Shown here in pieces: positions 13,217-24,510 of a stretch of 64,000 nt of DNA. A program made the position numbers and the translations under genes. The notes below the pieces were generated by a model. That model was not told where the DNA came from, did no database searches, and was given only the letters and a program-made list of their open reading frames with translations. Source of the DNA: a virus. Its lineage: Duplodnaviria; Caudoviricetes. The stretch spans positions 96,001 through 160,000 of the IMG/VR virus record IMGVR_UViG_3300028374_000002. One strand, written 5' to 3'. The stretch's first letter is position 1. Each line of letters begins with the position of its first letter.

Positions 13217-13945
13217 ATGACACCACAATTAGAAAAAGTATTCTTCAGCTATATTCTTTCAAATAGAAAAAAATACTATGAAATAGTTAAACCATTTTTC
13301 TTTAAAAATTCAACAATTCAGTTTGTATATGAGGTTATGAGAAATTACATGCTTACATCCACTGAAACAAAGCCCCCTAGTAATAGGCAAATACTAGATA
13401 TGGTATCATTAGAAGATAAAGAAGGTATCATAACAAAGCCTATGCTCAAATCTATATTAGATGTTAACCTAAGTGAATACAATGAAGTTAATTTTATACT
13501 TCCAAAGTTTAATGGATGGGTGCTGTCTAATAGAATCAAAACTGGAACAGTTGATGTCATAGAGGAAACTAGAAATTTGGATAACATATCAGACTTTGCA
13601 CATGCTGTTGAATCTGCTAATAAAATAAAAAGTATTATCAATGAGATGTCATCTGTAAATTTTGTACAAGATGAAGATATGGGATCTGATTTTGATGAAC
13701 CAGAAAACCATGTTCAAGATTCCTCAAGGTTTAAAGTAAAATGTGGATTCGAAACAATAGACCATATGCTAGGTGGTGGTTGGGATATCTCAACTTTGAA
13801 CGTAATTATGGCTCAAACTAATGGTGGTAAATGTTTTTCTACTAAAACACTTGTAAACACTAGAGTCAAGGACACTAATATTATTAAAGAGATAGAAATC
13901 GGAGAACTATTTAATGATATTAGTAATCAAAATAGTAATAGCTAA
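13217..13945 (+). CDS. dnaB: gp41/DnaB replicative helicase, N-part, ending in a 37-aa N-intein
   Basis: GFETIDHMLGGG...MAQTNGGK then CFSTKT (intein block A) and a stop. Confidence 0.9.
   Translation: MTPQLEKVFFSYILSNRKKYYEIVKPFFFKNSTIQFVYEVMRNYMLTSTETKPPSNRQILDMVSLEDKEGIITKPMLKSILDVNLSEYNEVNFILPKFNGWVLSNRIKTGTVDVIEETRNLDNISDFAHAVESANKIKSIINEMSSVNFVQDEDMGSDFDEPENHVQDSSRFKVKCGFETIDHMLGGGWDISTLNVIMAQTNGGKCFSTKTLVNTRVKDTNIIKEIEIGELFNDISNQNSNS
13832..13942 (+). mobile_element. Atypical short N-intein (37 aa) in the helicase Walker A motif
   Basis: Cys1 directly after GGK; CFSTKTLV...EIEIGELF. Confidence 0.85.
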
Positions 13946-14023: not shown

Positions 14024-14467
14024 ATGAATAGTAATTTTAAAATAATAGAAGCCGATTCTCTCTTAGAAGGTGAGTACGACAAACCATTATATGATAAGTT
14101 CGTAGAAGCTTATGGGGTTAATAATTTAGAAGTTGAAACACCACAAGGGTGGATTGATATTGAAGGAATTGGAAAAACTATTAAATATGAAGAATATAAA
14201 CTAATCCTTGCTAATGGGTGTGAATTGATATGTGCAGATGACCATATACTATACAGATGTGATAATCTGAACTTTATTAGTAGGAAGTGTGACATAACAG
14301 AACTATTTTGTAAGAACTTAGAATTAGGTGATTTTATAATGACCAAAGAAGGCCCTGAGATGATAATGGATTTTGATAAGACTGGAAAAGAATCACATAT
14401 GTATGACTTACAACTTGGTGTAGGTTCTGATAAAAAATACTACACTAATGGTATATTAAGTCACAAC
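14024..14467 (+). mobile_element. Long C-intein (148 aa), Ser+1
   Basis: VETPQGW, block B CADDHIL, block F MYDL, block G SHN|S. Confidence 0.85.
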
Positions 14468-15184
14468 TCACTTTGGATGCAGAACTTTGCAGTAAAGAGT
14501 GCCAATAGTGGACATAACGTACTATACATTACACTAGAGATGAGTGAAAGAAAAGTTATGAAGAGGTTGGGTTCTATGCGTTTGAAAATACCTATAAATG
14601 ATTATGATACAATATCAAAAGATACTGAACTCATAAGAAGGAAGATAAAGGGATTATCTAGTATATCAGAAAATGATTTATTTGATAAGAAGGTAGGTAA
14701 GATAATGACTAAGTTTTGGGCAGCTGGTACTGCAAATATTGATGACTTTGATTATTATATCCAAAAGTTAAAAGATAAGAGAGATATAAAAATAGATATG
14801 ATTATAGTAGATTATATAACACTCATAGCACCATTAAAAGCACCAGGTGTTGATAGTCTCTATACTAAGGGTAAACAACTTGCTGAAGGTTTGAGGGCAT
14901 TAGGGGCTAAATATTCATGCCCAGTTGTAACTGGTGTACAAGTAGCTAAAGATGCTTGGAATTCATCTGATATAACACTAGAAAGTGTACCAGAATCTAA
15001 GGCTATCGCAGAAACTGCCGACACATTTTTTGCAATAATAAGAACGGAAGAAATGAAAAGGCAAAACCTATTCAGATTTAAACTTCTTAAACAAAGAGAT
15101 GGAGATTTTCTTAAATCACAGGTTAGACTAACATTAAACACGACATATCTAACATTAGAGGGTGATATGTTTGTTGATCAATAA
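14024..15184 (+). CDS. dnaB: gp41/DnaB helicase, C-part, starting with a 148-aa C-intein
   Basis: ...YTNGILSHN then SLWMQNFA; YITLEMSE, IIVDYI, SKAIAETAD, KQRDG helicase motifs. Confidence 0.9.
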   Translation: MNSNFKIIEADSLLEGEYDKPLYDKFVEAYGVNNLEVETPQGWIDIEGIGKTIKYEEYKLILANGCELICADDHILYRCDNLNFISRKCDITELFCKNLELGDFIMTKEGPEMIMDFDKTGKESHMYDLQLGVGSDKKYYTNGILSHNSLWMQNFAVKSANSGHNVLYITLEMSERKVMKRLGSMRLKIPINDYDTISKDTELIRRKIKGLSSISENDLFDKKVGKIMTKFWAAGTANIDDFDYYIQKLKDKRDIKIDMIIVDYITLIAPLKAPGVDSLYTKGKQLAEGLRALGAKYSCPVVTGVQVAKDAWNSSDITLESVPESKAIAETADTFFAIIRTEEMKRQNLFRFKLLKQRDGDFLKSQVRLTLNTTYLTLEGDMFVDQ

Positions 15185-16203: not shown

Positions 16204-17400
16204 ATGATAAAGGTAGTAAAAAGAAATGGTAAGAAAGAACCAGTAATGCTAGATAAAATTCTAGATAGAATAGAGCAACAAACTTATGGATTAGATAGAA
16301 AATGGGTAAGTCCATTTGATGTTGCACAAAAAGTAATTGGTGGTGTTGCACCAGATATAAAGACCTCAGTCCTAGATAAACTAGCAACCGAGACAGCTGC
16401 CGCATTAGCTACTAAGCACCCAGATTATTCAATATTAGCATCAAGATTAGCTATAACTGCATTGCATAAAGATACGAAAAAATCATTTTCTGAAACGGTT
16501 AAAGATTTATACAAATATATAAATCCAAAGACAAATGAGAAATCACCAATTGTGTCTAAAAGTTTCTATGAGATTGTTAAGAAAAATGCAGATAAGCTAG
16601 ACTCTGCTATAATACATACTAGAGACCATCATTTTGATTTCTTTGGTTTCAAAACATTAGAGAAGTCTTATTTGTTAAAAATAAATGGTGAAGTTGCAGA
16701 ACGTCCTCAATATATGTATATGAGAACTGCCATACAAATATGGCAAGATAATATTGATAAAGTTATTGAGACATATAATACGATGTCTGAGGGGTATTAC
16801 ACACACGCTACACCAACTTTATTCAATTCTGGTACTAGGAGACCACAATTATCTTCTTGCTTCTTATTAGACACGGAAGATGATTCTATTGAAGGGATAT
16901 TTAACACTCTTAAAGAATCTGCTCAAATATCTAAAAACGCAGGTGGGATAGGTATTAATTTCAATAATGTAAGAGCAAAGGGTAGTTATATAGCAGGTAC
17001 TAACGGTACTTCGAATGGTATAATTCCTTTCTTAAAGATTTATAATGAAACTGCTAGAGCAGTTGACCAGTGCTTTACACCAGAGAGTAAAGTAATAACA
17101 GAGAGAGGTGTTATAAACATAAATGAAGTAGAAAGGGGTGACAAAGTCTTGACTAGTGATGGTGTTTATAATTCTGTCATAAAGAGAAAAGATTTTAATA
17201 AATCAGATGACTTTATAACAATTACAACAAAGAGTGGTGTTAATAGAGTTACTAAAGGTCACCAAATATTAGTTATTAGAGGTTTGGATAAAGACATATC
17301 TAAAGAAGCCATTAAAGAAGGGATTAAGCAAGGTGTATATAATGTAGAATGGATTTCTGCTAATGAATTAATGAAAAGTGATAAAATAGTAAAATACTAA
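16204..17400 (+). CDS. nrdA: NrdA piece 1 (ATP cone + first catalytic Cys) + N-intein 1
   Basis: VVKRNG ATP cone, ATPTLFN, QLSSCFL, GGIG, RAVDQ then CFTPES. Confidence 0.95.
   Translation: MIKVVKRNGKKEPVMLDKILDRIEQQTYGLDRKWVSPFDVAQKVIGGVAPDIKTSVLDKLATETAAALATKHPDYSILASRLAITALHKDTKKSFSETVKDLYKYINPKTNEKSPIVSKSFYEIVKKNADKLDSAIIHTRDHHFDFFGFKTLEKSYLLKINGEVAERPQYMYMRTAIQIWQDNIDKVIETYNTMSEGYYTHATPTLFNSGTRRPQLSSCFLLDTEDDSIEGIFNTLKESAQISKNAGGIGINFNNVRAKGSYIAGTNGTSNGIIPFLKIYNETARAVDQCFTPESKVITERGVININEVERGDKVLTSDGVYNSVIKRKDFNKSDDFITITTKSGVNRVTKGHQILVIRGLDKDISKEAIKEGIKQGVYNVEWISANELMKSDKIVKY
17071..17397 (+). mobile_element. Split intein 1, N-part (109 aa)
   Basis: CFTPESKVIT, GDKVLT, block B TKGHQIL, WISANEL...D. 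Confidence 0.9.
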
Positions 17401-17410
17401 TATTTGTAGT

Positions 17411-17420
17411 TTAATATATA
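17411..17420 (+). promoter_or_regulatory. Phage promoter TTAATATATA ahead of the first intein-splitting endonuclease
   Basis: Exact match to the recurrent intergenic motif, correct orientation. Confidence 0.6.
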
Positions 17421-17466
17421 TAGTAACAATCCTCTAGGGTTTGTAAAAAATATATTAAACTATAGT

Positions 17467-18390
17467 ATGGTAAAGTGTAATACGGAAGAAACAATTAAAA
17501 AATTTAAAAAAAAGCATAGTAATAAATATAGTTATGAGTTAGTTAAATATAAATCAGCAATATCTAAGGTTAGTATAATATGTAGTAAGCATGGAATATT
17601 TGAGATAACGCCAAATAGTCATTTAAATGGTTCTGGTTGTAGTTTATGTGGTAGAGAAAGAACTGGTGAGAGCAAAAAGTCTGATACATCCTTGTTTGTA
17701 AAATCTGCTAATAGAGTACATTCTCATAAATATAATTATAATAGATGTACCTATATAACAAATTTAGACAATGTTACAATAACTTGTAAAAAACATGGCG
17801 ACTTTTACCAACAAGCTAGAAAGCATTTATCTGGACAAGGCTGTAAAAAATGTGCTAATGAAAGCCAATATTGTAATTTCGTAGAAAAATGTGAGAAAAA
17901 GTATAAAGACTATTTATATAGTAAAGTAAACTACAAAGGTATGTGTAGTGATGTTATAATAACTTGTAAAAAACATGGCGATTTCAGTATTAAAGCTGCC
18001 AATTTTTATCATAAAGGAAGAGGTTGTAAATTATGTAAAACATATAATAAGTCTATTAAAGAAGGCGAATGGTTAGATGATATGGGGATAGATAACATCA
18101 ATAGAAATGTGTATATTAATTTTGGTAAAAAGGTTTTCTGTGTAGATGGTATAGATAAGAAAAGAAAAATAATATACGAATTTTATGGTGACTTTTTCCA
18201 CGGAAATCCTGAAGTTTATAAAAAAACAGATATAAATCCACTTCTTAAAGAAGAATATGGAAAACTTTATAAAAAAACAAAAGATAAAGAAAACATTATT
18301 ATCTCAAATGGATATAAGATAATATATATTTGGGAAAATGATTATAATAAAAATAAAAATAAAAACGGAAAGTATGAAAGAAAACATTGA
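17467..18390 (+). CDS. Free-standing endonuclease (CxxHG...CxxC zinc repeats + Vsr/DUF559-like domain) splitting intein 1
   Basis: Three C.KHG.F..GC..C modules; VDG...IYEFYGDFFHG...IWE. Confidence 0.8.
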   Translation: MVKCNTEETIKKFKKKHSNKYSYELVKYKSAISKVSIICSKHGIFEITPNSHLNGSGCSLCGRERTGESKKSDTSLFVKSANRVHSHKYNYNRCTYITNLDNVTITCKKHGDFYQQARKHLSGQGCKKCANESQYCNFVEKCEKKYKDYLYSKVNYKGMCSDVIITCKKHGDFSIKAANFYHKGRGCKLCKTYNKSIKEGEWLDDMGIDNINRNVYINFGKKVFCVDGIDKKRKIIYEFYGDFFHGNPEVYKKTDINPLLKEEYGKLYKKTKDKENIIISNGYKIIYIWENDYNKNKNKNGKYERKH

Positions 18391-18565
18391 AAGTGGAACA
18401 GAATGGATTGAAGATCCTGTTGATTTAAATCTAATTATAGACAATTTAGATTTTGAAGGTATAGAGGATATATCAATTAATAAAATAGAGAATCAAAATG
18501 TTCATGATCTAGAGATAGAAAATCAACATAATTATATTGTTGATGGGCTAGGAATAGTTCATAAC
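18374..18565 (+). mobile_element. Split intein 1, C-part (64 aa), followed by Gly+1
   Basis: [22 protein letters not shown]; next codons are GGT GGA GGT. Confidence 0.85.
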
Positions 18566-19604
18566 GGTGGAGGTAAATAAGCGTATGCTTCCACTTTAAA
18601 AAATTTGGAGAATTGCTGGGAAATTCTTAGAGTTATCATTACTACAACATAAAGAGTAATCTTAAGTGTGAAAGTTAAAAAAATGATAAATTGGACAATC
18701 AGCAGCCGCCTTTCTTAGGGATAAGAAAAAGGTTCAACGACTAATGAGAGTAATGTAGACCACAAGAAATCAACACGAGCACCAAACACAGAAATGTGAA
18801 GATATAGTCTGATCTTGTATGAAAGTATAAGAAATTAGGATAAAGACCCTAATGATAACAAAGTAAATGAAACGCAAAGGAAGTATAGCCATTTATATGG
18901 AACCATGGCATGCTGATATTATGGAGTTCTTAGATTTAAGAAAAAACCAAGGTAAGGAAGAAATCAGGGCTAGAGATTTATTCCTAGCTATGTGGATGAA
19001 TGACCTATTTATGGAAAGAGTTGATTTGGACAAAGATTGGTCTTTGATGTGTCCTAACGAATGTAAAGGATTGGGTGATACTTATGGTGATGAATTTCGT
19101 GAGTTATACCTTAAATATGAAAGTGAGGGAAAATATAAAAAGGTTGTTAAGGCTAGAGAAGTTTGGAATAAAATCTTAGAGTCTCAAATAGAAACTGGTA
19201 CACCTTATATACTCTATAAAGATACTATTAATGAGAGGTCTAATCAAAAGAATATTGGTGTTATCAAAAGTTCCAATCTTTGTCTAGACGGTAGTAGCTT
19301 GGTAAGATGTAAGATTAATGGTGTTGAAGAAGAACTTGATATGGTTACTATAGATGGTTTGTTTAAAGATGGTAAGGTAATAGAAGTTTTATCTAGAGAT
19401 GTTAAGAATGGTCTTGATGAGTGGTGTCTAGTTGAGAATTCAGGAATGATAAACAATAATGCAGAAACAATTAAAGTAACAGACAAAGAAACTGATAACT
19501 TTATAATATGTACAGAAGATCATAAAATATGGACTGAAAACAGAGGATATATTAAGGCAATTGATTTAAACGTGGATGATATAGTTAAAATTATGGAATC
19601 ATAA
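18374..19604 (+). CDS. nrdA: NrdA piece 2: C-intein 1 + extein + N-intein 2; spliced join(18374..18574,18870..19604), 311 aa
   Basis: IVHN|GGG [intron] [14 protein letters not shown] ... ETGTPY ... KSSNL|CLDG; splicing restores the conserved VDQGGGKRKG. Confidence 0.9.
18575..18869 (+). mobile_element. ORF-less group I intron (295 nt)
   Basis: P AATTGCTGGGAA 18611, Q AATCAGCAG 18697, R GTTCAACGACTA 18732, S AAGATATAGTC 18799; P1 GTGGAGGT/GCTTCCAC with U.G at the 5' splice site; terminal G; GAAA-capped P8 and P9. Confidence 0.92.
19281..19601 (+). mobile_element. Split intein 2, N-part (107 aa)
   Basis: SNL|CLDGSS; block B CTEDHKIW; YIKAIDL...DD. Confidence 0.9.
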
Positions 19605-19639
19605 ATATCGGCAAATAAAATTATCAGAAACACACATAA

Positions 19640-19649
19640 TTAATATATA
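19640..19649 (+). promoter_or_regulatory. Phage promoter TTAATATATA ahead of the second intein-splitting endonuclease
   Basis: Exact motif 14 nt before the ATG. Confidence 0.6.
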
Positions 19650-19663
19650 AAATAAAAATAATT

Positions 19664-20515
19664 ATGTGTGTTTCTTCTAATTACTTATATATTATCACTG
19701 ATACAACAAAACCAGGTAACTATGAGTTTGGTAACCTTAAGTTTCAGTTCTTACCATTCTACGTTGGTGTTTCTAATACAGAAACCTATTACAAAAGGGA
19801 AGACGTGCATATAAGGTATGCTAAAATTAAAAAAGATGTTACCAAAAATAAGTATAAGATGAATATAATAAACAAAATACTTAAATCTAATAAAGAACCA
19901 CATATATATAGATTATACGAAAATTCTACAAGAGATTTTATATTTAAAAAAGAAATTGACCTAATACTAATGATTGGTAATAGGTTTGATAAAACAGGAC
20001 CACTAGTGAACATATCAAAAGGTGGTGAAGGTGGTGATACTTTCACAAACAATCCACGCAAGGAAGAAATAAGAGAGAAGCATAGGTTGAATGCAATAGG
20101 ATCTAAAAATAACATGTATGGTTTACCGTTGGAAAAAAGACCATCTCATATTTCAAAACTAAGTGGGACACATTGGAATAAGGATAGTGTTGTAAGCGAT
20201 TCCACTAGAAAGAAACTATCAAATAAGAGCAAAGGTCATAATAATAACAAGTCAAAATTTACACTATTATTTGATAAAGATTTCAATTTTATAAAAGAAT
20301 TTGAATGTTGTATGTATATAGCAGAACATATAGGATCAACAAAAAAAGCTGTTTCAACAACGGCAAGGAGAAATTCGAAAAAAGAAATCCCTTATCACAC
20401 AACAAAAGAATTCTTTATTATATATAAAGAGGACTGGGAAAATAAATTTAAACATAAAGAGGAAGAAATTAAAGAATTTCTTAGAACTTTTAGAAAAAAT
20501 AAAAATCAATTTTAA
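19664..20515 (+). CDS. GIY-YIG homing endonuclease splitting intein 2
   Basis: YLYIITD...PFYVG; GPLVNISKGGEGG; related to the N-terminus of 4009..5793. Confidence 0.8.
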   Translation: MCVSSNYLYIITDTTKPGNYEFGNLKFQFLPFYVGVSNTETYYKREDVHIRYAKIKKDVTKNKYKMNIINKILKSNKEPHIYRLYENSTRDFIFKKEIDLILMIGNRFDKTGPLVNISKGGEGGDTFTNNPRKEEIREKHRLNAIGSKNNMYGLPLEKRPSHISKLSGTHWNKDSVVSDSTRKKLSNKSKGHNNNKSKFTLLFDKDFNFIKEFECCMYIAEHIGSTKKAVSTTARRNSKKEIPYHTTKEFFIIYKEDWENKFKHKEEEIKEFLRTFRKNKNQF

Positions 20516-20540
20516 TAAAAAAATAAAAAAATAAAAAAGC

Positions 20541-20636
20541 ATGATAAAAATAGAAAGAGTAAAAAATAGACCTGTTTATGATATTACAGTAAATAAAAAC
20601 AATAATTTTTATGCAAATAACATATTAGTTCATAAT
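20541..20636 (+). mobile_element. Split intein 2, C-part (32 aa), Cys+1
   Basis: VYDITV..NNNFYANNILVHN|C. Confidence 0.9.
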
Positions 20637-21620
20637 TGTGGTGAGATAGTAGAAGCCACGGGAATTACAAAAGCACAAAAGCCTATATTGGAAAACAAGG
20701 AACTTTTAGAAAAATTAAATCTAGGAGAGTTTTATGGCAAAGAAAGTGTTAATGAGACTGCTGTTTGTAATTTGGCATCTATTGCACTACCTAAGTTTGT
20801 GAATAAGAATAAAACATATAATCATAAAAAGCTATACGAAACTGCTTATACTGCAACTGTAAATCTAAATAATGTAATTGATTATAATTATTATCCTTCT
20901 GAAAATGCTAAATTTTCTAATATATTACACAGACCGATTGGTTTGGGTGTACAAGGATTAGCAGATGTATTTTTCCTAATCGGAATTCCTTATGACTGTG
21001 ATGATGCTAAAGCACTTAATAAAGAAATATTCGAAACTATTTATTACGGAGCTTTATCTGCATCGAATGATTTGGCTAAGGAACAAGGAACATATGAGAC
21101 TTATAAAGGTTCTCCTTTATCAGAGGGTAAATTTCAGTTTGACTTATGGGGTGCTACACCAACAAAAAGATGGGATTGGGAAAAGCTAAGAGTTAAAATA
21201 TTAGAGCATGGTGTTAGAAACTCTTTAACTACGTGTGTTATGCCGACCGCTTCGTGTTTTACTAGTGATGGTACTATATTCACAGAGGATGGTGTAAAGT
21301 CTTATAGAAATATAATGAATGATATGGATATAGATTGGGAGAAAATAGAAGAAACCAATGAGCAAGGATGGATTAAATTTAAAACACCATTAATGGTAGA
21401 AACTAGATTTGGTCTTAGAGAGTCTAATAAAATATTCTACAATGGTCATAAGGAAGTTATAGAAATCGAATTAGAAGATGGGAACATATTTAAATGTACT
21501 GAAAATCATAAGTTCTTAGTAGAAAGGGATGGTGCTGATGAATGGATTACTGCTAATGATTTAGTAGAAAGTGATGAGATTGTTGAAAGTAGCCTAATGC
21601 TCGAAAATACGAGGGAGTAG
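20541..21620 (+). CDS. nrdA: NrdA piece 3: C-intein 2 + extein + N-intein 3
   Basis: ILVHN|CGE (thiyl-radical Cys as +1), VCNLASI, RPIGLGVQGLAD, RNSL..MPTAS|CFTS. Confidence 0.95.
   Translation: MIKIERVKNRPVYDITVNKNNNFYANNILVHNCGEIVEATGITKAQKPILENKELLEKLNLGEFYGKESVNETAVCNLASIALPKFVNKNKTYNHKKLYETAYTATVNLNNVIDYNYYPSENAKFSNILHRPIGLGVQGLADVFFLIGIPYDCDDAKALNKEIFETIYYGALSASNDLAKEQGTYETYKGSPLSEGKFQFDLWGATPTKRWDWEKLRVKILEHGVRNSLTTCVMPTASCFTSDGTIFTEDGVKSYRNIMNDMDIDWEKIEETNEQGWIKFKTPLMVETRFGLRESNKIFYNGHKEVIEIELEDGNIFKCTENHKFLVERDGADEWITANDLVESDEIVESSLMLENTRE
21255..21617 (+). mobile_element. Split intein 3, N-part (121 aa)
   Basis: MPTAS|CFTSDG; block B CTENHKFL; WITANDL..SD. Confidence 0.9.
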
Positions 21621-21640
21621 GCATAGGACAAGGCATCACT

Positions 21641-21650
21641 TTAATATATA
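21641..21650 (+). promoter_or_regulatory. Phage promoter TTAATATATA ahead of the third intein-splitting endonuclease
   Basis: Exact motif 15 nt before the ATG. Confidence 0.6.
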
Positions 21651-21665
21651 AATAAAAAAGTATTT

Positions 21666-22904
21666 ATGGTTAAAGTGATGTCTAAGTCTTTCTCTTCAAA
21701 GCGAATGTTTTTAAAAAAATTAAAAGGTGTGAAAATAGTTGAAAGTGATATAGAATGTGGTATAGATGAATTATTTGCGTGGTATGGAATACCAGAGAGT
21801 ATAAATTTATGTAAAAAAATTGACATAATAAACCTAAAATTAAATAATAACATCGATGATAGGCAGTTAAAAACATATTTAAAAAAATCATTAAATACTT
21901 TTGAAATTAAAAGGTTTTTATCCTATATTGAATATAAAAGTAATAATCCTAAAGATGTTAGTTCAGAAAATTATTTTAAGTTAGTATATGGTAAAGGTTG
22001 GGAAAATTATAAAGACAAGAAAGCAAAGGATAGAAAATCCCCATATGACTTAGAGTATGTTGCCAAGTCCAATAATATATCAACTGATAAAGCTAAATGT
22101 AAGATATCAAAAATGAAATCAGACAAAGCAACTAACCTAGTTGGATTTATAAGAAGACATGGTAAAGAAAATGGTGAAAAAATGTTTCAAAAATTTCAAT
22201 TAACTAGCAAACATACATTAGAAAAGTATATTAACAAACACGGAAGTATCATAGGATTAGAAAAATGGAATAAGTATTTGTTGGTTAAATCAGAAACTTC
22301 AGCATTTAATAAAAATTTTTGGATTAACAAAGGATTTACTAAAAAAGAATCAATCGCTAAAGTCAGAAAAATATCAGACAATAGTAGTTTGAAATATTTT
22401 ATAAATAAACATAATGGTAATATAGATGTTGCAAAGACTGAATTTATCAAATTTATTAGGAAAAAGGGTGTAAATTTCAATAATGCAAGTAAGGAGTCAT
22501 TAACTTACTTTAATAGTTTGTATAAAAAACTAATAGAATTTGGTATATATGATTGTGATATACACTTAGGTGCATTTGGTAAAAATGAGTTATGCCTTTT
22601 CTATGAAGATGGTTGCTATCTTTATGATTTTGCTATAAAAAGTCATAAGCTAATTATAGAATATCACGGTGAGAGATGGCATCCTAACCCTGATAGATTA
22701 TCTGATAAAGAATGGAATTCGTGGAAATGTATTGCTAGTGGTATCAGTGCAAATGAAAAGCATTTAAGAGATAGGCATAAAGAAAAAGTGGTATATGACA
22801 ATGGTTTCAAATTACTAGAAATATGGTCTAATGATACATATAAACTTAATTGTTATAAAATAAATAACTTTTTAGAAGAAAATAATATAAAAATAAATAA
22901 ATAA
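21666..22904 (+). CDS. Free-standing Vsr/DUF559-like endonuclease splitting intein 3
   Basis: C-terminal YLYDF...LIIEYHGERWH...LLEIWS; KHG..G..K repeats. Confidence 0.75.
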   Translation: MVKVMSKSFSSKRMFLKKLKGVKIVESDIECGIDELFAWYGIPESINLCKKIDIINLKLNNNIDDRQLKTYLKKSLNTFEIKRFLSYIEYKSNNPKDVSSENYFKLVYGKGWENYKDKKAKDRKSPYDLEYVAKSNNISTDKAKCKISKMKSDKATNLVGFIRRHGKENGEKMFQKFQLTSKHTLEKYINKHGSIIGLEKWNKYLLVKSETSAFNKNFWINKGFTKKESIAKVRKISDNSSLKYFINKHNGNIDVAKTEFIKFIRKKGVNFNNASKESLTYFNSLYKKLIEFGIYDCDIHLGAFGKNELCLFYEDGCYLYDFAIKSHKLIIEYHGERWHPNPDRLSDKEWNSWKCIASGISANEKHLRDRHKEKVVYDNGFKLLEIWSNDTYKLNCYKINNFLEENNIKINK

Positions 22905-22906
22905 TT

Positions 22907-23014
22907 ATGAAAATAAAAAAGATTACAAAATCACAAACGACTAAACCTACATGGGATATAGAAGTAGAAGATGTTCACGAGTATCTAACTGGAAATATGT
23001 GTGTGTCACATAAT
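22907..23014 (+). mobile_element. Split intein 3, C-part (36 aa), Thr+1
   Basis: MKIKKI...TWDIEVEDVHEYLTGNMCVSHN|T. Confidence 0.9.
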
Positions 23015-23686
23015 ACTGCACAAATACTAGGTAATGAGGCATCTTATGAAGCACAGACCTCTAATATGTACTCTAGAGGAACATTATCAGGTACATTTAT
23101 TATGGTTAATAAGTATCTTGTAAAAGAGCTAGTTAAACAAGGTATATGGGATGATAATATAAGAAAGAAAATTATAACAGAAAATGGTTCTGTTCAAAAC
23201 ATACCAGAGATACCTACAAATCTTAAAGAGATATTTAAGACAGTTTATGAGGTTAAGCAGAAGGATGTTATTGACATGTGTGCTGATAGGGGGGCTTTTG
23301 TTGACCAAACACAATCTATGAATATTTTTATGGATTCTCCAAACTTTGCTAAGCTAACTGCTATGCACTTTTATGGATGGGGTAGAAGAAAATTCTTAAA
23401 AGACGAAAGAGGTCAAGATGTTATACCAAGTGGTGATAATATAGAAATTATTTATAATGAAGATGGTACTCCTAGATTTTATAGAGATAAAAAATCTTGT
23501 CTAAAAACTGGTATATATTATCTAAGGAATAAAGGAGCAGCTGATGCTGTTAAATTTACTACTAAGCAAGTAACAGAAGAAGTTAAAGTTGATGAATCAG
23601 AAATGTCACCAAAAGAATTCCAAACTATGGTTGAAAATTCTAGAAATGCACAAGATGATGATGACTGTTTAATGTGTGGTTCTTAA
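22907..23686 (+). CDS. nrdA: NrdA piece 4: C-intein 3 + C-terminal extein
   Basis: VSHN|TAQILG, DQTQSMN, KTGIYYLR (Tyr pair), terminal CLMCGS. Confidence 0.95.
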   Translation: MKIKKITKSQTTKPTWDIEVEDVHEYLTGNMCVSHNTAQILGNEASYEAQTSNMYSRGTLSGTFIMVNKYLVKELVKQGIWDDNIRKKIITENGSVQNIPEIPTNLKEIFKTVYEVKQKDVIDMCADRGAFVDQTQSMNIFMDSPNFAKLTAMHFYGWGRRKFLKDERGQDVIPSGDNIEIIYNEDGTPRFYRDKKSCLKTGIYYLRNKGAADAVKFTTKQVTEEVKVDESEMSPKEFQTMVENSRNAQDDDDCLMCGS

Positions 23687-23707
23687 CATTTAATTACTAA
23701 GCAAGAC

Positions 23708-23741
23708 AAAAACTCTCAATATAATATATTGAGAGTTTTTT
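23708..23741. terminator. Bidirectional terminator
   Basis: 15-bp perfect stem AAAAACTCTCAATAT / ATATTGAGAGTTTTT between convergent genes. Confidence 0.85.
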
Positions 23742-24510
23742 ATTTCCATATGTTTTCTAAATCTATCCTAGCATTAACACCTACTTCTTTTCCATCTTTA
23801 ATTAAAGAATATTTGTTAAAATCTTTGAAAACATTTAGTATTTCCATCATTTTTATAATTTCTTTATGTTCTATATCCTCATTAAATATCTTAACTAAGT
23901 TATCTACCTCATCGTATGATAAGTTTCTTTTATCTTTGAGAAAATGTGTGAAGTCATAGAATAAATCAGAATATTTATGACCCTCTCCGTTTATTTCTTT
24001 TTTGAGTAAAAATTTACTGAGAGATGTTTCAACACCTATTGTTGGCAGGGAATAGATATAGTCGTTGATTTCAAAACATTTATCTTTATTGTTGTACATA
24101 GACATTGTGTCATTGCTTAAATTTATGTAGTTAAAATTCTTATGGCTAAACTCAATATATTTACTCTCTATTGTATCTTCATCGATATAATCAAATCCTA
24201 TTTTTTTACCAATCGTTAGTCTAACTATTTCAATGAAGATAAAAACTATATCTATGCTTCTTATATCTCCAAAATTATATCCTTTTTGAAAAGTTATATT
24301 GTTTATAACAACGGTTTTTATTTTAGCTATTACCATAGATATATCATCTTTTATAAAATTACTCTCATACATTTCTATATCTTGTATACTAGCTTTTCTG
24401 ATTTTCATACTGAAGTCATCTTGATAGAACAGACCCAATGAAGGCAATGTTTTTAATTTAATTACTTTTTCGTTTCCAAAAAATTTTTGTGAAAATTGTG
24501 CCAATTCCAT
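23740..24510 (-). CDS. Baseplate hub assembly-like protein (T4 gp26/gp51-like)
   Basis: LPSLGLFY...IRKAS..D....D...IFIEIVRLT resembles the gp26-like N-terminal pattern. Confidence 0.4.
   Translation of the reverse strand: MELAQFSQKFFGNEKVIKLKTLPSLGLFYQDDFSMKIRKASIQDIEMYESNFIKDDISMVIAKIKTVVINNITFQKGYNFGDIRSIDIVFIFIEIVRLTIGKKIGFDYIDEDTIESKYIEFSHKNFNYINLSNDTMSMYNNKDKCFEINDYIYSLPTIGVETSLSKFLLKKEINGEGHKYSDLFYDFTHFLKDKRNLSYDEVDNLVKIFNEDIEHKEIIKMMEILNVFKDFNKYSLIKDGKEVGVNARIDLENIWK

Follow-up and report, generated by a model that had tools for sequence, protein, structure and literature searches.

Fractured genes, in which a split intein surrounds a free-standing endonuclease gene, were described by Dassa, London, Stoddard, Schueler-Furman and Pietrokovski in 2009, and NrdA-1 to NrdA-7 are among them (PMC2677866). 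Their cassettes lie on one strand and run from the N-terminal protein part and its N-intein, through a hairpin spacer and a GIY-YIG or Vsr-like endonuclease gene, to the C-intein and the C-terminal part; each locus holds one fracture, and part of a second intein is found in DnaE-1 only (PMC2677866). The nrdA gene of Aeromonas phage Aeh1 is split by a free-standing endonuclease gene (mobE, HNH) into separately translated pieces that give an active enzyme, and translation of mobE is damped by a hairpin (PMC3045599; described in PMC2677866). Here we describe the nrdA locus of a virus, which lies at 16204–23686 on the + strand of a 64,000-nt stretch of DNA (the window; bases 96001–160000 of IMG/VR record IMGVR_UViG_3300028374_000002), and in which three fractured-gene cassettes divide the alpha subunit of ribonucleotide reductase (RNR) over four polypeptides and a group I intron interrupts one of them. 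To our knowledge, the natural split inteins described so far join two protein halves.

The cassettes of the window have the same build and strand arrangement as those of Dassa et al., and the NrdA insertion point of that study, immediately ahead of the thiyl-radical Cys, corresponds to site 2 of the window (PMC2677866). Unlike those loci, the present nrdA has three fractures, three unrelated inteins (one followed by Gly at the +1 position) and a group I intron, and each of its two middle pieces bears halves of two pairs, the C-intein of one and the N-intein of another. The first-pass annotation of this DNA had recognised that single fractured genes with a split intein around an endonuclease were already known, in agreement with PMC2677866. 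Aeh1 nrdA differs more, as it has no intein, assembles non-covalently and is broken once, at another site. In engineered tandem trans-splicing (Pinto et al. 2020, PMC7090010), several fragments, each placed between intein halves of different kinds, are ligated in a fixed order, as is proposed here, whereas the present system is natural, kept by selection in several phage lineages, and polymorphic. The coincidence of an intron and an intein is described for bnrdE of Bacillus phage SPbeta (Lazarevic 1998; Derbyshire and Belfort 1998; cited in PMC3653736), where, as far as the cited account goes, the intein is contiguous, unlike split intein 1 of the window. Literature searches for a natural gene with at least two split inteins gave engineered systems only.

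The source is a 201-kb viral contig that CheckV rates as 28% complete, and the window has a G+C content of ~29%. The closest published genomes are those of the uncultured huge phages LR756502.1 (642 kb) and LR756504.1 (636 kb). The locus is present in public lake-water and salt-lake metagenome runs, 23 of which hold at least 58% of the sampled 31-mers of the locus; none of the runs listed for the locus is an RNA run.

The three cassettes cut nrdA at VDQ|GGG, SSNL|C and MPTAS|T (sites 1, 2 and 3), and each consists of an N-intein that ends in a stop codon, a free-standing homing-endonuclease gene (HEG) and a C-intein with its own start. By translation table 11 there are five nrdA open reading frames (ORFs), since the intron interrupts piece 2, and RNA splicing would reduce them to four polypeptides. 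All parts lie on the + strand. Piece 1 (16204–17400) begins with extein 1 (16204–17070; 289 aa), which holds the ATP-cone, the all-alpha domain, the start of the barrel and the SSC motif according to Pfam and is 82% identical to the intact NrdA of a related contig (L005). It runs through AVDQ into Cys1 of N-intein 1 (17071–17400; 109 aa plus stop), a Hint/Hint_2 match in which Cys1 and the block B T-x-x-H are invariant among nine split alleles, and ends after 108 further intein residues. The ORF that starts at the ATG at 18374, inside the end of HEG1 (17467–18390), encodes C-intein 1 (18374–18565; 64 aa), identified by an Intein_splicing match, alignments and a complex model with N-intein 1, and terminates in VHN|GGGK-stop. 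The three Gly codons (18566–18574) are the first of extein 2; beyond the intron, the frame that opens at 18867 resumes with KRKGS and supplies the other 137 aa of extein 2 up to SSNL (18870–19280), followed by Cys1 and 106 residues plus stop of N-intein 2 (19281–19604; 107 aa), which has 67% identical same-site homologs in the related contigs L107 and L194.

Piece 3 (20541–21620) opens with C-intein 2 (20541–20636; 32 aa), whose VHN|CGE end places the thiyl-radical Cys at +1, and continues with extein 3 (20637–21254; 206 aa, with C-x-E, VCNL and the MPTAS end) and N-intein 3 (21255–21620; Cys1 and 120 residues, 121 aa plus stop), an Intein_splicing match with Cys1 and the block B His retained in 32/32 homologs. 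Piece 4 (22907–23686) starts with the 36 residues of C-intein 3 (22907–23014), which lead to SHN|TAQ with Thr at +1, and closes with extein 4 (23015–23686; 223 aa plus stop), the bearer of the YY radical-transfer pair and the C-terminal CxxC. The features of a fractured gene recur three times: an in-frame N-intein with a stop (at 17398, 19602 and 21618) on one strand; a short spacer (66, 59 and 45 nt) before a GIY-YIG or Vsr-like endonuclease ORF; and a C-intein start at or near the end of that ORF, which for C1 lies within HEG1 and for C2 and C3 lies 25 nt and 2 nt past the endonuclease stop. The first-pass annotation had given the junctions as VDQ|C...HN|GGG, SNL|C...HN|CGE and MPTAS|C...HN|TAQ, each with an N-intein, an endonuclease gene and a C-intein, and we recovered all of its ORFs, motifs and extein lengths.

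When joined in silico, the exteins (289+140+206+223) give a protein of 858 aa and 97.5 kDa, and its residues 1–858 align end to end with residues 3–850 of the uninterrupted 850-aa NrdA of LR756502.1 at 77% identity. The LR756502.1 protein in turn matches human RRM1 and yeast Rnr1 (E = 0). The Pfam domains ATP-cone, Ribonuc_red_lgN and Ribonuc_red_lgC follow in the correct order over the pieces, with Hint/Intein_splicing matches at the piece ends, and positions 1–72, 75–213, 190–392 and 391–514 of the Ribonuc_red_lgC profile fall on the four successive pieces. The catalytic residues are spread over all four: SSC (217), SSNL|CGE (426–432), VCNL (472), YY (803–804) and the C-terminal CLMCGS. An ATP-cone, the large-subunit domains, the Cys/Asn/Cys/Glu/Cys set, the YY pair and the C-terminal Cys pair are those of a class Ia RNR alpha subunit (NrdA/R1). 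Both the proposal that the exteins rebuild a complete class Ia NrdA and the distribution of catalytic residues over four pieces, with their motif positions, therefore agree with the earlier description.

That description had also suggested looking for intact alleles in related phages, and such alleles exist. In LR756502.1 and 15 related IMG/VR contigs all three sites are empty, and the exteins abut at AVDQ|GGGKRKGS, SSNL|CAEIVE and MPTAS|TASILG. Since the empty sites close at the predicted junctions, the intein boundaries are fixed. The layout is far beyond chance.

The reading that we favour, with a probability of roughly 0.72, is that of an nrdA allele with three independent fractured-gene cassettes and a group I intron, reassembled as follows. 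Site 1 falls in specificity loop 2, site 2 at the thiyl-radical Cys and site 3 in the PTAS|T motif, all of them conserved, and at each a mini-intein is split by an endonuclease gene. The nrdA pieces would be co-transcribed, with the endonuclease genes separately controlled by their own promoter-like motif and a start-masking hairpin. The intron would leave the RNA, and the polypeptides would be ext1-N1, C1-ext2-N2, C2-ext3-N3 and C3-ext4 (ext, extein; N and C, intein halves). Each N-intein would pair with its own C-intein, and pairs 2 and 3 would undergo standard class 1 protein trans-splicing to give ext2-ext3-ext4 (65 kDa). Pair 1 would associate and then either ligate by a non-canonical route, for instance one in which the Gly amine released by Asn cyclisation attacks the thioester at Cys1 (a mechanism put forward for A-type BIL domains), or hold or cleave the pieces and leave ext1 (32.5 kDa) as a chain of its own. 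The endonucleases would spread the cassettes into intein-free alleles by homing, and the split would be frozen in place after an endonuclease gene is lost.

All three inteins have Cys1, a block B T-x-x-H (TKGH, TEDH and TENH) and a C-terminal His-Asn, as in class 1 inteins. The +1 residue, which should be Cys, Ser or Thr, is Cys for intein 2 and Thr for intein 3 and is Gly for intein 1. The N and C halves measure 109/64, 107/32 and 121/36 aa, the usual split site for endonuclease insertion; naturally split inteins have N-halves of ~100–125 aa and C-halves of ~35 aa. Pairwise identity among the three is 28–34%, in keeping with the first-pass view of three different split inteins (~30% mutual identity). 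The net charges are +3 for N1 and -14 for C1, -11 for N2 and +3 for C2, and -16 for N3 and 0 for C3. The polarity of pair 1 is thus opposite to that of pairs 2 and 3, which are alike (acidic N-half, basic start of the C-half); therefore, charge alone cannot separate the latter two. Since Pinto et al. (2020, PMC7090010) found cross-interaction to be negligible for 15 of the 16 inteins that they tested, orthogonality among three inteins of ~30% identity would be the default expectation. Thus, the mutually orthogonal pairs called for by the first-pass annotation are indeed required here, yet they are normal for unrelated inteins and may reflect no special adaptation. Judged by their +1 Cys and +1 Thr, joints 2 and 3 look canonical.

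The group I intron starts 9 nt past cassette 1. It was missed by a whole-window Rfam search at the gathering threshold and recovered by a local E-value search only, with an RF00028 match of 57.5 bits (gathering score 50, E 5e-14) over 18532–18831. Its bounds of 18575–18869 (295 nt, no ORF) follow from the U before the 5′ splice site and the terminal G, and the exon GGAGGU can pair with GCUUCC just inside the intron. The upstream frame meets an in-frame stop two codons into the intron. Homologous introns score 60.4 bits (contig L006) and 76.5 bits (L194), and the last base is G in 7/7. The last three bases of the intron (18867–18869) are ATG, in frame with exon 2, which could let unspliced RNA yield ext2-N2 without C-intein 1. 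We do not claim an internal start for piece 2, because the ATG is found in 5/7 homologous introns only, the others having CTG or ACG. In L107 (4363–4980), intein 1 is without an endonuclease gene, and the adjacent group I intron, of 948 nt, encodes a 205-aa ORF with a DUF559-like motif; therefore, the endonuclease of this composite element can sit in the intein or in the intron.

Junction 1 is where the proposed reassembly is least conventional. As the +1 residue is Gly and not Cys, Ser or Thr, canonical transesterification and trans-splicing cannot occur there. The Gly is fixed by the empty alleles (VDQGGGKRKGS) and by the intron P1 pairing, which sets the exon end at GGT, and it is invariant in all split and contiguous alleles seen. 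We considered whether a different splice site of the intron, or an intein boundary placed elsewhere, could supply a nucleophile at +1, and rejected this, given that the empty alleles read VDQGGGKRKGS with no Cys, Ser or Thr within reach. Nine split alleles, with identity down to 32%, retain Cys1, T..H, VHN, Gly+1 and the acidic extension of C1. Moreover, 101 non-redundant contiguous inteins (148–415 aa) of the form C...HN|GGG occupy the same site (loop 2) in viral contigs, many of them in giant-virus bins. Intein 1 shares its site, Cys1, His-Asn and Gly+1 with this contiguous RNR family, from which it differs in being split by an endonuclease gene and in lying 9 nt from a group I intron. Our searches gave no paper on the chemistry of these VDQ|GGG inteins with Gly+1.

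The catalytic residues conserved at intein 1 point to a continued use of the thioester and of Asn cyclisation, which could end in ligation or in double cleavage. Dassa et al., in a 2004 report in J Biol Chem, are said to have found that A-type BIL domains splice without a nucleophile at the C-flank, for which Asn cyclisation followed by thioester aminolysis was proposed. BIL proteins have a HINT domain that starts with Cys1 and ends in Asn, and the next residue is not a nucleophile, as in intein 1. BIL domains are unsplit and occur in variable bacterial surface proteins, not in essential enzymes. C-intein 1 bears a conserved, strongly acidic 28-aa extension, and a model of the N1+C1 complex scored 0.87, compared to 0.01 for the best control, with at least 95% contact agreement between runs and a partner pLDDT of at least 75; the 0.87 mark was attained by 51 of 78 solved complexes and by 2 of 108 mismatched pairs. 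The model puts residues 16–30 of the acidic extension in contact with N1, and its pass may reflect likeness to solved split-intein complexes and not binding.

A different account of this junction is that it is never ligated, and that intein 1 serves as a non-covalent clamp or excises itself at both ends. The alpha subunit would then consist of two chains (32.5 + 65 kDa: ext1 and ext2-3-4), and a functional two-piece NrdA is indeed known from Aeh1 (PMC3045599; described in PMC2677866). This is consistent with the invariant Gly+1 and with the acidic extension modelled against N-intein 1. A pure clamp, in contrast, would have no need of the Cys1, T..H and His-Asn that are invariant down to 32% identity, though double cleavage would need them, and the 101 contiguous same-site alleles must at least excise their intein for a working barrel. 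We regard a permanently two-chain enzyme as a serious contender, although somewhat improbable. At the other end stands the fullest version of the reassembly: a selection-maintained assembly line of four fragments, with three pairs orthogonal in vivo, the Gly+1 joint closed by thioester aminolysis after Asn cyclisation (a chemistry not known for any intein), and one 97.5 kDa alpha chain produced by three protein-splicing events and one RNA-splicing event. We consider this complete version unlikely. Because of Gly+1, ordered splicing into a single 97.5 kDa chain is not a safe inference, and of the ordered four-way trans-splicing envisaged in the first-pass annotation, junctions 2 and 3 look canonical, and any ligation at junction 1 would have to be atypical.

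The endonuclease genes belong to two groups. HEG2 (19664–20515; 283 aa) is of GIY-YIG/NUMOD type, to judge from a weak LEM-3_GIY-YIG match in Pfam and from its nearest Atlas clusters, all of which are of this kind (score 0.96). HEG3 (21666–22904; 412 aa) and the C-terminal domain of HEG1 (307 aa, with Zn-finger repeats) are DUF559/Vsr-like, as indicated by weak Pfam matches (DUF559 and MTES_1575 for HEG3), a phrog_22677 match common to both, Atlas DUF559 clusters, and a HEG1–HEG3 tblastn match (E 3e-6); HEG1 also matches phrog_681 and phrog_559. A HEG1 homolog of 48% identity lies at the same place in LR756504. PDB sequence searches with HEG1-3 gave nothing useful.

The motif TTAATATATA occurs 20 times in the window against 2.8 copies expected, each copy being followed, 5–173 nt downstream on its own strand, by an ORF that starts with ATG, and is probably a phage promoter element. 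Its sites include 1914, 12008, 17411, 19640, 21641 and 25031, with one before each endonuclease gene and none before the nrdA pieces. The spacer ahead of HEG1 (17401–17466) holds a copy at 17411–17420 and a hairpin that reaches the start of the gene. Hairpins cover the ATGs of all three endonuclease genes, as in fractured genes, with energies of -18.4, -13.5 and -7.2 kcal/mol (fold energies alone), and ahead of pieces 3 and 4 the leader is A-rich and lacks structure. By analogy with Aeh1 mobE, and as Dassa et al. proposed, we infer that the endonuclease genes are under separate control. Read-through from an N-intein into the endonuclease was considered and rejected, as several in-frame stops separate N1 from HEG1, and N2 does not share its frame with HEG2.

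The four-piece arrangement extends beyond this phage: it is common among the lake huge phages of one clade, and it is polymorphic. The 78-kb contig L007, from another sample, has 98.9% identity over 15 kb and the same four-piece layout, with 23 single-nucleotide polymorphisms (SNPs) and no indel in the nrdA locus. Thirteen reading frames (four nrdA polypeptides in five ORFs, three endonuclease genes and six intein halves) are intact in both. N-intein 1 (17071–17400) holds 10 of the 23 SNPs, of which 7 are synonymous; this local excess may be the footprint of recombination around the HEG1 site. Five further contigs, L107, L194 (566 kb), L196, L197 and L198, carry these three split inteins at the same sites, and their endonuclease genes are present in some cases and replaced, degenerate or absent in others. 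In L107 and L194 the intein halves are 62–91% identical to those of the window. HEG1 and HEG3 are lost from L107, and all three endonuclease genes from L194, where their 3′ remnants still provide the start region of the C-intein ORF; in L196–L198, site 3 is occupied by other ORFs or by fragments.

Relatives of inteins 2 and 3 were collected via extein searches, and N-intein 2 or N-intein 3 alone retrieved only the sister contig and distant matches from IMG/VR. Among the best 120 protein clusters from a 5.8-billion-protein collection, at least 32 are doubly flanked C2-ext3-N3 pieces, 56 are C2-ext3-ext4 and 12 are ext2-ext3-N3. All 32 doubly flanked clusters have Cys1 and His-Asn, in a set that was chosen by its HN|C pattern. 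Pieces of the ext1+N1 type form more than 110 protein clusters. Thus, from the varied site combinations among relatives, the clade shows a combinatorial polymorphism of occupancy. Two contigs carry contiguous inteins beside or in place of split ones. In L028 (3367–5538), intein 3 is contiguous, with 24 nt linking its N and C parts in frame, and is either the mini-intein in its ancestral form or the product of re-fusion once the endonuclease gene had been lost. In L055 (3952–6387), a contiguous intein precedes the SSC cysteine (...VEN|CFLL), and split inteins 1 and 2 are present as well, as is the intron.

An intein-free allele also coexists with the laden one at near identity. The contig L195 (JGI 3300039150, 1,935 nt; corresponding to window positions 18876–23926) encodes ext2-ext3-ext4 with sites 2 and 3 empty, and comparison with it sets cassettes 2 and 3 at exactly 1,356 and 1,760 nt. 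Compared to in-silico spliced window DNA, 4 of 1,935 nt differ; three of these differences are close to insertion sites 2 and 3, at distances of 5, 24 and 7 nt, and one changes the +2 Gly to Ala at site 2. The chance of at least three of four differences falling within ±24 nt (5% of the length) is ~5e-4, a rough figure, as the width of the interval was chosen after looking. This pattern fits co-conversion or target-site immunity.

Beyond the Gly at junction 1, several points weigh against the proposed reassembly of a laden but functional nrdA. The coexisting intein-free allele shows that the species does not need the laden one. No nrdB was found on the 201-kb contig, which represents 28% of the genome; a second nrdA may exist elsewhere in the genome, and the host’s own RNR could mask a defective phage nrdA. 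As C2 (+3) and N3 (-16) are on one polypeptide, mis-pairing or cyclisation may also be possible, according to the charges of the translated halves. The lack of nrdB on the contig and the near-identical intein-free allele would likewise be expected if the four-piece allele were a decaying gene, overrun by selfish elements and without active RNR, in a phage that uses the host enzyme or a copy in the unsequenced 72%. However, the nrdA and intein frames are intact in the window, in L007 and in five diverged lineages, all catalytic residues are retained, and the ratio of nonsynonymous to synonymous substitution (dN/dS) is well below 1 for both exteins and intein halves, as under purifying selection: between the window and L107 it is 0.07–0.13 for the exteins and 0.04–0.41 for the six intein halves, with dS saturated, such that only the direction is reliable. 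The split inteins also outlast the loss of the endonuclease genes on the 566-kb L194 contig. Furthermore, two complete relatives, LR756504.1 and G001 (348 kb, 100% complete, with inverted terminal repeats), each have a single nrdA, which is split at site 1, and an intact nrdB. Taken together, we judge decay to be improbable. A mis-assembly or a chimera of strain reads, which metagenomic sequence with coexisting cassette-bearing and cassette-free strains might suggest, is negligible as an explanation, since the same order of parts recurs in assemblies of other samples and from other pipelines (IMG/VR, JGI, Logan) at ~99% (L007) to 60–90% identity, with the reading frame and intein motifs preserved at every junction.

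Inteins are also found elsewhere in this phage. A DnaB/gp41-like helicase upstream of nrdA (13217–13945 and 14024–15184, + strand) is intein-split as well, at an atypical position. Its first ORF ends in ...NGGK|C plus 36 residues, and the second opens with ~147 intein residues (block B CADDH) and SHN|S, which restores the Walker A GKS. No endonuclease gene lies between the helicase halves in the window; L194 has a 391-aa Vsr-like ORF there. Outside the window, at C1:166905–169943 (- strand), three Intein_splicing matches fall in one frame of 1,121 aa, which indicates that the phage also carries one or more contiguous inteins in another gene.

The locus and its relatives form a natural set of co-evolved, coexisting split-intein pairs, usable for studying how partner choice is coded and for multi-fragment ligation, and the Gly+1 joint offers a split, and thus easily assayed, version of the Gly+1 intein family. 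For the phage, an essential enzyme would need two or three trans-splicing events, and the middle pieces must avoid both self-reaction and wrong partners. In summary, the allele series, from intein-free through endonuclease-bearing and endonuclease-degenerate to endonuclease-free, documents the full life cycle of fractured-gene elements within one phage clade, and shows that the split stays fixed once the endonuclease is lost.

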